Positions 30,531 to 62,502 of a DNA stretch of 64,000 nt are shown here, in pieces (the stretch's first letter is position 1; every line of letters begins with the position of its first letter). The notes under the pieces are model-generated. The model saw only the letters and a program-made list of their open reading frames with translations. It made no database searches and had not been told where the DNA came from. The position numbers and the translations under genes were made by a program. This DNA comes from Eledone cirrhosa (taxonomy: Eukaryota), in NCBI GenBank assembly GCA_964016885.1, contig OZ024745.1:26784001-26848000 (forward strand). Reading direction: 5' to 3'.

Positions 30531-30736
30531 ATAGGAACGAGTAGGACCCCGACGACTGAGCTGAAGCCTTTTCGACGGCTAATTCTGGACGAAATTTAGT
30601 CCAGAATTAGCCGTGGAAACGGCTTGAGCTCAGCCGTCGGGGTCCTGCTCGTTCCTATTACACACTCTACTACCCTAAGTATTGAGTACTTTGGTGCGTT
30701 ATGGTCCACTTGGTTCCTTACCACATTTCCTTCGTT
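30531..30736 (+). mobile_element. Fold-back mini-PLE, family A copy 1
   Basis: Inverted repeat 30531-30658 plus a ~78-bp tail, flanked by (TA)n. Confidence 0.8.
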
Positions 30737-30746
30737 ATATATATAT

Positions 30747-30918
30747 ATAGGAAAATGTTCAAGGCCCCGACGGCAGAGTTCAGAAATAGCCGTCGAAAGG
30801 GCTTGAGCTCTGCCGTCGGGGGTCTTGAACATTTTCCTATTACCCACTCTACTACCCTAAGTATTGAGTTCTCTGGTGCGTTATGGTCCATCTGGTTCCT
30901 TACCACACTTCCTTCGTT
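30747..30918 (+). mobile_element. Fold-back mini-PLE, family A copy 2
   Basis: Shorter inverted arm, same tail. Confidence 0.8.
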
Positions 30919-30934
30919 ATATATATATATATAT

Positions 30935-31898
30935 ATTGTTATGCTTTGGGAGGGTCATGTTGCCAATAAGAAACACACGCACCAGTTGCTTTCACTTCAA
31001 TTTATTATAAATTAAATTTATAAATTTAGGAATTTATAAATTTCCGGTTGGTTTTCAAAGACATCCCTGTATAGATAAGAAATGTATAATCTGTAAACTA
31101 AGCCCCCATATTAACTGTAAAACTAGAAATGTAGTATATAGCATAAGATGTACTGAAGGACAATGTAGAGATAAGAATATAGTGTACATAGGTGAGACAG
31201 CTCGTAGTATAGGGGAACGGATAAATGAACACTGGCGAGAGCTTCAAGATAGTAAAGAATCATATGTACTCCACCAACATACTAAAATAGAACATAAGAG
31301 TAAATTAGAGAACATAGAAATAAAAATAGAATCTACACACAGAAAAGACGCAATGTTTAGACAAATCACACAGGCAATAAACATAAATGAACTCCAACCA
31401 AAATTAAATAGAAAACATGAATGGAATAGCAACATCACAACTTACAATTAAGGACAAAATGAAAACACACACACACATAGAACAAACAACCAACCAGTAA
31501 CATGTAAATAAACAAATAAATAAACAAATATAAACACACAGAGACACCCGGATGTAACACATGCGCAAACTAAGCACACAACAAAAACAAGATGGCGTAG
31601 GACAGAACAAAGGAGAGGCACAAAAACAAAGAAAAGAATCCCCTGTCACTGAAGAGGTCACAGAATGTGTGACGAAAGAACTATGACAATATATGAACAA
31701 TCGTCTGGTTGTGGAACCAACCAACCAACCGGAAATTTATAAATTCCTAAATTTATAAATTTAATTTATAATAAATTGAAGTGAAAGCAACTGGTGCGTG
31801 TGTTTCTTATTGGCAACATGACCCTCCCAAAGCATAACAATATCGGTTTCAACACGTTTTCAGATAAAGAATCTTGCTAAACAAATTCAGAAACGAAA
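30935..31898 (+). mobile_element. 5'-truncated Neptune-type Penelope element with inverted 5' pLTR
   Basis: Open frame 31053-31451 with CIDKKCIIC, NVVYSIRC, YIGETARSIGERINEH, PKLN. 30935-31053 is the reverse complement of 31723-31841. Unpaired tail 31844-31898, (TA)n on both sides. Confidence 0.9.
31644..31688 (+). ncRNA. Complete minimal type I hammerhead ribozyme in PLE pLTR
   Basis: tgtca-CTGAAGA-g-gtcaca-gaatg-tgtgac-GAAA-gaacta-tgaca. Confidence 0.85.
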
Positions 31899-31920
31899 TA
31901 TATATATATATATATATATA

Positions 31921-32094
31921 CGTAGGTCCCGGGTTGAGTCGGGGATACCCACAGTAAGTAAGGTACTCAATACATGGCAGAGTAAATTTTTTTTATTTTA
32001 TAGAAGGAGCTTCTACAGGACTAGTACTGTTTCATTCATCTGAATGAAACAGTACTAGTCCTGTAGAAACTCCTTCTATAAAATAAAAAAAAAT
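31921..32094 (-). mobile_element. Fold-back mini-PLE, family B
   Basis: Inverted repeat 31986-32094 centred on tttcattc-atct-gaatgaaa, with GAAACAGTA. Tail 31921-31985. Relative at 51485-51610. Confidence 0.75.
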
Positions 32095-32107
32095 ATATAT
32101 ATATATA

Positions 32108-60130: not shown

Positions 60131-60272
60131 CATTATTTTACGATCGTTTCTAGGATATATATGTGTTAGAGTTGGTATGCATATTCTATAGATCTATGTA
60201 CAATATTTATACAAACTATCAGAGGGAATATACATACCTACACATATATATGCTGTCTTCAGAAATATTATG
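60131..60272 (-). ncRNA. Type I hammerhead ribozyme with long (~105 nt) stem II
   Basis: Minus strand cataatattt-CTGAAGA-[atatatatgtgt/acacatatatat and ggtatgtatattc/gaatatgcatacc helices]-GAAACGATCGTA-aaataatg. It lies between inverted arms 60073-60128 and 60276-60331. Confidence 0.65.
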
Positions 60273-60830
60273 AAGTTTTTTTAATATAAGGAACTGTTTC
60301 TTTGTTTATTCATTATTTTTTTTAATAATTTATCTTGTCTCTGTTTTCCGTTTATTTTTCACCGAAAGTAGTTTTTGAATGCATCTTCTCTTTTCATGAT
60401 ATCCGGATTACATTGAGTTCTTCATACGGATTGGACACTACCGTAAACTTTTGGTAGATTTATCTACATATATATATGTATACATGTACATGTATATAAA
60501 TTTATATATATATATATCATATATATATATATCAAACACCTACGGTAGTAGGTGTATAATATTCTTAAGGTCCCATTTCGGTCACTCGCGACACCTTCAA
60601 AGCTTTGTCACTAATTCAATTTTTGATAGAATTGGATGCGGTTCTTTGCACTTTATAGAACCATAGATAAGCTACTTTTTGACATAAAAATATTGAAATT
60701 TGGTTCAGTAGAAAAAAAGTTACATAAAAATAAGTGAGGACCAAAAGGAACTACATACATAAGTAACGCTTAGTTTGTTTCTAATTGCTAATACATTAAA
60801 ATAGTGATAGATTGTGCAATAGCGAATTGT

Positions 60831-60903
60831 GGTCAGGTAGCTCAGTCGGTAGAGCAGCGGACCGGCAATCCGAAGGTCGTGGGTTCGATTCCCACTCTGA
60901 TTA
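60831..60903 (+). tRNA. tRNA-like gene or pseudogene, nominal Ala(GGC)
   Basis: 73-nt cloverleaf: GGTCAGG/TCTGATT, GCTC/GAGC, loop CCGGCAA, GTGGG-TTCGATT-CCCAC. TTTT terminator follows. C33 and 3 G-U pairs in the acceptor stem are atypical. Confidence 0.6.
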
Positions 60904-61016
60904 CTTTTCCTATCTGCACTTCTTCCTATTCATTATTATTTATTTAACTTATTTGTTGATAAATATTTTTAATATTAATAAAATATCCTTGCATTGCCTG
61001 GAAAAAAAGTGGATTA

Positions 61017-62232
61017 CAGGGAAAAATGCGGGCGCATGTAAAGAAATATTCTTAAATTAATAAACCTAGAAAAGTAAAGGACAAGTTATTACACCTGGAA
61101 AAGTAAAGGACAAGAAAACTTCTTCTTAAAACTTCTTAAAATATTGCAGCTAAAGTCTAAATTTAAAAAAAAATATTTAGATTATGAAACTAAAAATAAA
61201 TAATTATAAGTTAATTGTTAAAAAAATATCCCTTTAAAGTACTGGAAAAATGACTGTCTTATAGGGAGAGTTGACTACTGTATACTTAATTTTTTTCTTG
61301 GTGTATACAAATTAATCTTTTTAAAATAAAATTTGTACAATAATTTGTACAATAATTTGTACAATAATTAATTAATAATAATAATAATAATTAATATGTA
61401 CAATTTATTAATTTATGTTATAAGATATTTAAAAATGTTAACTCTTAATCAAATTATATTTTTTTAAATTTAGTTATAAAATAATGCAGTAAAATAAATC
61501 AAAAACAGTGCATCATATAATTGCACTTTTTATGAGTATTACAGATTTTTTTATAATATAGTAAAATTCAACATCTCAAGGGGCAAAATTAGGTAAAAGT
61601 CAATTCATCAATTATTCATTTATAGTGAATCAATCAATTATAGTGAATTCATCAATTCATTAGATGAACTGTTGAATTAGACAATGTTTAATTTTTAATT
61701 GTAGTCTAATTTTACTCTACCTAAAAATGTAGATTGGTTAATTTGATCTCTGACAGGTCTTAAATTTCATTATTAAACAATTATAATTTGTTATTATTTA
61801 TCATTACAGTTGGCTCCCTAATTAATTATTAATTAATTGTTAGTGTCATTTACACGCCAAAATTTTGTTTTATTTGATGTTTATAATTGTCACTCATTTT
61901 TTCAGTCCCGTTTAGTAAAGTAAAATAAAGTATATTTATTTAATGACCCAACCACTATGGTGTAAATTAGGATCACAAAATTAAATAAATGATCATAAAT
62001 TAGTATTATTATCAATTAGAGAGTCAACTGTATTATTAGAATTTATCACTTTCTATGTATATTTAAATCAAATATTTTTTATTATTCAAATTTATACTAT
62101 AGCTGCAATATTTTAAGAAGTTTTAAGAAGTTTTCTTGTCCTTTACTTTTCCAGGTGTAATAACTTGTCCTTTACTTTTCTAGGTTTATTAATTTAAGAA
62201 TATTTCTTTACATGCACCCGCATTTTTCCCTG
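61017..62232. mobile_element. Non-autonomous long-TIR element, about 1.2 kb, very AT-rich interior
   Basis: TA|CAGGGAAAAATGCGGG ... CCCGCATTTTTCCCTG|TA, ~135-bp TIRs with an internal gaaaagtaaaggacaag direct repeat. Confidence 0.75.
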
Positions 62233-62294
62233 TAATATATATATGTATACATGTACATGTATATAAATGTTTATATACATATATATATATATAT

Positions 62295-62502
62295 AACGAA
62301 GGAAATGTGGTAAGGAACCAGATGGACCATAACGCACCAAAGTACTCAATACTTAGGGTAGTAGAGTGGGTAATAGGAACGAGTAGGACCCCTACGGCTC
62401 AGCTCAAGCCGTTTCGACGGCTAATTCTGGACTAAAATTTTAGTCCAGAATTAGCCGTCGAAACGGCTTGAGCTGAGCCGTCGGGGTCCTACTCGTTCCT
62501 AT
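62295..62502 (-). mobile_element. Fold-back mini-PLE, family A copy 6
   Basis: Tail plus near-perfect palindrome centred on gactaaaattttagtc. Confidence 0.8.

Follow-up and report, generated by a model that had tools for sequence, protein, structure and literature searches.

Palindromic mini-inserts of a Penelope-like element in Eledone cirrhosa: probable products of twin priming and run-off at a predicted transcription start site

Inverted truncated copies, tails and insertion into TA repeats have been described for Penelope-like elements (PLEs), and the origin of their inverted and tandem ends was named there as an unsolved question (PMC8557442). Palindromic junctions in PLEs have been ascribed to self-priming (PMC3846280), and the transcription start sites lie in the pseudo-long terminal repeat or pLTR (PMC2377424, PMC8557442). 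For the PAc element, reverse transcription starts at two sites that bracket the tail and extends both target strands, and the product length tracks the RNA 5' end (PMC11167929). Here we describe six short palindromic inserts in a stretch of 64,000 nucleotides (nt) of the Eledone cirrhosa genome (assembly GCA_964016885.1, contig OZ024745.1, positions 26,784,001 to 26,848,000), called the window. The six copies are truncated head-to-head inserts of a (TA)n-targeting PLE, designated family A, and we consider it likely that they arise by twin priming at two sites of the tail and run-off at the start site, followed by end joining.

Coordinates are positions in the window; within the element, positions are counted from the cleavage base C17 = 0, and the parts of the element were mapped on long parents. 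All six copies noted in the initial annotation were confirmed as inverted arm, direct arm and tail between (TA)n. Mini 1 (30531..30738, forward strand) has its inverted arm at 30531-30595, its direct arm at 30593-30658 (predicted C17 at 30638) and its tail at 30659-30738, the tail arm and inverted arm ending at -45 and -44. Mini 2 (30747..30920, forward) occupies the TA run directly after mini 1 and consists of a short inverted arm (30747-30778), a direct arm starting at -40 (30777-30840, C17 at 30817) and a tail (30841-30920), with ends at -40/-9. The other four lie on the reverse strand. Mini 3 (44933..45128; tail 44933-45012, direct arm 45013-45077 with C17 at 45033, inverted arm 45064-45128; ends -44/-44) has its apex on a GTAC palindrome of one parent variant, and the apex of mini 4 (51838..52069; tail 51838-51915, direct arm 51916-51976, inverted arm 52011-52069; ends -40/-38) holds an additional templated piece of 34 nt (51977-52010). 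In mini 5 (57645..57822) the tail extends to 57722, followed by the direct arm (57723-57769) and inverted arm (57770-57822; ends -26/-32), and in mini 6 (62295..62502) the tail extends to 62372, the arms being located at 62373-62436 and 62439-62502 (ends -43/-43). All six copies contain GAAA, GUC, GGGGU and a stem III whose palindromic loop is of the GAGCTC type, in agreement with the hammerhead 3' half that had been recognized in them. The claim that the copies turn inside stem II holds for mini 5 only; the other five turn mostly beyond it, in loop II. No further family A copy was found in the window by BLAST with mini 3.

A genome search with the tail led to longer parent copies. The parent at locus L033 has the order inverted arm, upstream pLTR, tail, open reading frame (ORF) for a reverse transcriptase (RT) and endonuclease, long 3' untranslated region, hammerhead region, tail and (TA)n, which bears out the PLE origin, with inverted pLTR and tail, that had been proposed. 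Its single ORF, with frameshifts close to the N-terminus, contains the RT motif YRDDG and a C-terminal AYIG..R motif of the GIY-YIG endonuclease type, both conserved across 15 aligned homologues; 1,877 homologues of the protein were found among 7,998 scored candidates. Pfam gave no match for the L033 ORF and no significant one for four homologues. The architecture of endonuclease-containing PLEs is present, with a partial-tandem pLTR, an inverted 5'-truncated copy and a tail. The protein has the Hydra-type motifs DKT, RWR (in a shifted frame; RWK-like), a CxC..C linker, CxxC and CxH, and by the motif criteria of PMC8557442 it is provisionally placed in the Hydra clade, an assignment made from motifs. 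The parent unit measures about 3.6-3.7 kb, and the tail of 78-80 nt is, as in other PLEs, the sequence between pLTR and ORF. A hand count in 80 evenly spaced 10-kb stretches of the genome gave 14 tail-bearing copies, corresponding to ca. 52,000 family A copies per genome (29,000-88,000), so that the window is locally enriched in minis, which outnumber long copies by about 8:1 or more. Exact arm patterns of 22-32 nt had 3,504-38,537 genome matches and reversed controls none; the family A pattern is therefore not due to chance.

The arms end at a preferred place. Loop II (-46..-34) holds the ends of 122 of 191 arms, and 27 arms end in the 3' strand of stem II (-33..-23); the remaining ends lie further 3' (22) or further 5' (20). 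The mode is -40 (27 arms), and the ends form a wall at -40 to -46 with a sharp drop beyond -46. This sample comprises arms unselected on their 5' end, loci selected on that end being dropped together with arms less than 150 nt from a locus edge, exact duplicates and arms failing a fuzzy anchor, the last of which removes ends 3' of -8 from the count. The initial annotation had expected non-uniform apices, which is confirmed, with a peak in stem II, which is absent. Genome-wide exact counts, with patterns covering the main family A variants only, fall from 38,537 arms reaching -37 to 26,181 reaching -40, 7,563 reaching -47 and 3,504 holding the core. In the parents A(-40) is preceded by T or C, whereas genome-wide a non-parental G precedes it in 5,050 arms, compared to A in 827. 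Thirty of the G copies were sampled, and in no case did parent sequence follow beyond the G. G is found next to 17 of the 27 ends at -40 versus 26 of 115 other ends (p=1e-4). A TATA-like 8-mer lies 29-31 nt upstream of A(-40) in all 59 scored parent variants (66 in total), about the distance expected between a TATA box and a start site, and A(-40) itself is located within TCAGT or TTAGT, the former being an arthropod initiator (PMC10911095).

A sister PLE, family B, serves as control. It was recognized from a mini at 31921..32092 (reverse strand), which has the same tail plus head-to-head arms and turns at stem/loop II, a minority case in this family. The family B ORF is 53-58% identical to that of family A in parts, and its arm pattern has 30,612 exact genome matches. 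Family B has a canonical CUGANGA core, present in long copies too, and its stem I covaries (AGATTC/GAATCT in 29 arms, AGCTTC/GAAGCT in 8). Thirty of 138 arms are long. A single arm ends in -59..-48, whereas -47..-39 holds 63 ends, the core 23 and stem/loop II 21; the short arms mostly run through stem II, and CUGANGA is kept in 63 of 107 of them. At -44/-43, G adjoins 12 of 24 ends, compared to 10 of 70 ends at other positions (p=0.001), and transcription is predicted to start at the first base of stem I. A TATAAATA-type box is located at -73/-74, upstream of the core, in 18 of 22 variants; this count includes two false family B parents, which were removed from the 138-arm sample, where one chimeric repeat is still represented four times and one pair is identical. 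The ribozyme part at the wall thus differs, being loop II in family A versus the first base of stem I in family B. Because the family B pile-up lies 5' of the core and near 30 nt downstream of the TATA box, the wall tracks the TATA box and not stem II.

The paired arms suggest that two cDNAs are joined. Head-to-head pairs have one tail in 105 of 112 cases and two tails in 1. Both outer ends are fixed: site A is the end of the tail and site B is TTCCTAT, with a TA run after site A in 85 and after the TTCC of site B in 91 of the 105 one-tail pairs, as the initial annotation had recognized for the outer arm. Among 62 pairs the inverted, tail-less arm is the longer in 29 and the tail arm in 22; the centres are distinct in 57, in agreement with the earlier observation that apices differ per copy, and recurrent apices cut across subfamilies. 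The junctions show short overlaps and templated inserts, both signatures of end joining. The same loop variant is present on both arms in 62 of 100 pairs versus 12 after shuffling, so both cDNAs likely derive from the same RNA species; the pair at L183 is one of few with arms of different subfamilies. A fixed-length ruler from the priming site was rejected, since arms from sites 80 nt apart share their end point. Arm lengths form a continuum up to kilobases. Site A terminates the long unit at 8 of the 21 ORF-bearing loci and site B at 11, the tail being on the inverted partner in 8 of these 11. Either tail boundary can therefore start a full-length copy, which excludes simple snap-back.

In L1 twin priming, two primers from the two target strands give a head-to-head junction. 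For family A, both nicked target strands would act as primers for reverse transcription, one at each end of the 78-nt tail, initiation probably taking place at the 5' pLTR-ORF copy of the tail, for which another PLE provides an in vitro precedent. Both DNA copies would run off the likely capped RNA 5' end, predicted inside the long loop II, and the extra G would be a copy of the cap, as was proposed for the 5' untemplated G of L1 (PMC9341517). The two cDNA ends would then be joined by microhomology or by templated end joining. The fold-back point would be set by a predicted promoter rather than by the ribozyme helix, and family A minis lack the core because it is located upstream of the predicted start site.

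Several observations weigh against this explanation. The family A start site is a prediction from genomic arm ends and motifs; the TATA-like motifs are non-canonical, lie in AT-rich DNA and were scored without a chance control, and inspection by eye revealed no match to the consensus of the downstream promoter element (DPE) at +28..+32. The partner arm could supply the G in about 9 of 30 G copies, as judged by eye. The upstream pLTR runs through the site in 24 of 30 ORF-junction copies, or 21 of 27 without duplicates, and ends there in 1, so a stall is not obligatory and long copies need another template, for which tandem read-through, a circle or a template jump are candidates. A monomer circle is not supported by two young copies, with 12/664 and 9/473 mismatches between upstream and 3' pLTR and 5/1806 and 2/557 between inverted arm and main unit; other copies are ambiguous. 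In favour of run-off, a copy at L307:2295-3471 that includes ORF sequence ends at -39, resumes within the ORF and ends at -39 a second time, which may represent a template jump at the RNA 5' end. A head-to-tail tandem of ca. 2.4 full units, duplicated about 300 kb away, is found at L303 (G000:C14:25391500-25401400), and tandems of this type are a candidate source of long copies.

Other points against a capped end are shared with the closest alternative, in which twin priming takes place on an uncapped RNA end or the wall is a roadblock, by nuclease trimming to a protein footprint or structure, with the G produced by non-templated C addition. Such cap-free addition would yield the same G, arm ends are spread over about 13 nt rather than one base, the G is concentrated on tail arms (18 of 22, compared to 3 of 12), and the wall is similarly far from the cleavage site in both families (-40 vs -43/-44). 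We nevertheless regard this alternative as unlikely, since the wall lies about 30 nt past the TATA motif in both families despite the different ribozyme parts there, and long copies do not stop at it. Somewhat less probable still is that the minis form a self-propagating family like the short interspersed nuclear elements (SINEs), each one transcribed from the initiator it carries, with the PLE protein acting in trans to copy it. This would suit the excess of minis and the subfamilies that tail searches recover almost only as minis, and it is compatible with run-off, changing only the source of the RNA; yet the common mini subfamilies exist as long parents too, the minis have no TATA-like box, their centres are mostly distinct with recurrent apices that cross subfamilies, and the region corresponding to the protein-binding region of PAc, in the ORF start (PMC11167929), is absent from them.

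The mechanism proposed in the initial annotation, an RT stall or snap-back of a single cDNA in hammerhead stem II with formation of the palindrome by self-priming, is very improbable and already largely refuted by family B. Mini 5 and the family B mini of the window turn there, a minority of arm ends in both families lies there, some apices contain short templated pieces of the snap-back type, and most pairs have the same loop variant on both arms. However, mode, wall and extra G are located outside stem II in both families, long copies pass the stem freely, the inverted arm is often the longer one and the tail-less end starts a full copy in 11 of 21 loci, neither of which a single snapped-back cDNA would produce, and a few pairs such as L183 have arms of different subfamilies. 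Copying as a miniature inverted-repeat transposable element (MITE) by a DNA transposase can be dismissed in spite of the palindromic shape and the TA targets, since the tail is one-sided, the apices vary, the parent encodes an RT and arm lengths extend to kilobases, whereas symmetric terminal repeats, uniform copies and a DNA transposon parent were not found. The minis also do not correspond to non-LTR retrozymes, which are tandem head-to-tail monomers with complete hammerheads (bioRxiv 10.64898/2026.07.22.740005), the minis being head-to-head and core-less.

The fold predicted for the family A parent has the parts of a hammerhead in order: stem I (ACCCC/GGGGU with a GGAA/UUCC extension), core YUGANAA, G10.1-C11.1, stem II of at least 6 bp, loop II of 33-37 nt, GAAA, a 6-bp stem III and GUC. 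The initial annotation had reported a loss of CUGANGA in the minis; neither strand of the six window copies contains CTGANGA, and the core is absent in cis. This is not a mini-specific loss, because the long parents lack CUGANGA too. The proposed tail search did recover long parents, but their core is U3-A8, a variant already known from Cercyon PLEs (PMC4209133), or C3/A8, a mismatch; the lack of a CUGANGA parent, which had been named as contrary to the stem II mechanism, was thus what was found. All 100 listed family A parent cores have A8, with about 64 U3 and 36 C3 by hand count. Standard base pairs occur in 59-67 of 68 variants at most of the predicted positions and in 51-52 at the last pair of stem III. 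The two halves pair at -23.8 kcal/mol versus -14.8 after shuffling, better than all shuffles in 13 of 20 cases; the hammerhead fold lies 2.4 kcal/mol above the minimum and the fold z is 0.09 for one mutated copy. Among close variants there are essentially no compensatory changes, and Rfam gave no hammerhead match in the window or in L033. The start of 7 of 233 tail arms falls at -1..+1, about twice the local background; this peak at the cleavage site is not significant and is at most a weak hint that the predicted hammerhead may cleave itself.

A more speculative proposal, which we put forward tentatively and consider doubtful, is that the family A promoter moved into loop II and that the hammerhead became a two-piece ribozyme, the capped 5' end carrying the substrate half only and its cleavage depending on the core half, which would lie 3' on that RNA molecule, at its other end. 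Processing and circularisation would then be coupled to full-length transcription, uncut capped RNA would end up in dead 'strong-stop' palindromes, and PLE mini-palindromes would preserve the positions of start sites in the genome of any species.

Various other repeats surround the minis. A perfect 121-bp inverted repeat pair (30933-31053 / 31723-31843) lies between mini 2 and the family B mini, and similar sequence flanks inserts at L059 and L152, which suggests that TA runs in another repeat may be targeted in nested fashion. In the flanks of L011 and L200, beside family A inserts, lies a third repeat that carries a hammerhead, in which the core is CTGAAGA and stem III is minimal. At L126/L127 (G000:C2:137217511-137220742) two identical minis stand tail to tail with mirrored flanks, either a large inverted duplication or an assembly artefact. 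Near-perfect palindromes of 150-390 bp, several beside TA runs, are found at 32107-32491, 37824-37971, 57831-58144, 58176-58357, 58930-59314 and 59409-59617, and a tandem repeat at 45466-47514 has at least four near-identical units of ca. 528 bp. A tRNA-Ala(GGC)-like gene at 60831-60904 (ARAGORN; Rfam 63 bits) has an unusual eukaryotic anticodon, lies within a region flanked by 175-bp inverted repeats nearby (61013-62236) and is possibly a tRNA-derived repeat. Fragments of reading frames resembling long interspersed nuclear elements were seen by eye at 29388-29912 and 56229-56717 (a C2H2-type zinc-finger tail and a C-terminal RT piece).

The minis as such belong to an ordinary class, truncated inverted PLE inserts, with a mechanism that is better supported than the one first proposed. 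The architecture is already known, and the run-off explanation was not found in the literature searched, which had nothing on run-off palindromes or twin priming in PLEs and left most subscription journals and Repbase notes outside its coverage. Tens of thousands of natural products point to twin priming and run-off, with the sister family as internal control. The model gives start-site predictions at the base level, and it accounts for many short palindromes, a large class which repeat annotation might record as MITEs or as microRNA hairpins.

Among described elements, the Hydra clade families listed by Craig et al. (2021, PMC8557442), such as Penelope-13_HM and Hydra-1_Amil, are 1.1-3.0 kb long with tails of 30-40 nt, compared to ca. 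3.7 kb and 78-80 nt in family A. Their hammerheads have CUGANGA and a loop II of 3-10 nt, unlike the YUGANAA core and 33-37-nt loop of family A, and the available part of that paper describes no start-site pile-up. Similar to family A, the hammerhead of Cercyon PLEs (Cervera and de la Pena 2014, PMC4209133) has a U3-A8 core in place of C3-G8 and occurs in close opposite-strand pairs, most motifs being solitary and truncated; family A differs by a stable 6-bp stem III, promoter-like motifs in the long loop II and the frequent C3/A8 mismatch. The Penelope element of D. virilis (Schostak et al. 2008, PMC2377424) also starts inside the pLTR, upstream of tail and ORF, but its promoter is TATA-less with a DPE, whereas here TATA-like motifs and no DPE match are found. 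PAc, a Poseidon element from Anolis (Frangieh et al. 2024, PMC11167929), shares two fixed RT start sites that bracket the tail, extension of both strands, a hammerhead dispensable for insertion and a predicted dimer; it belongs to another clade and was studied in vitro, and the available part of that work contains neither palindromic run-off inserts nor genomic proof that either site starts a long copy. L1 likewise has two primers, a head-to-head junction and the extra G (PMC9341517 for the G). L1 inversions are formed without duplication of the region, whereas in family A one stretch is copied twice, by cDNAs that start at two fixed sites.

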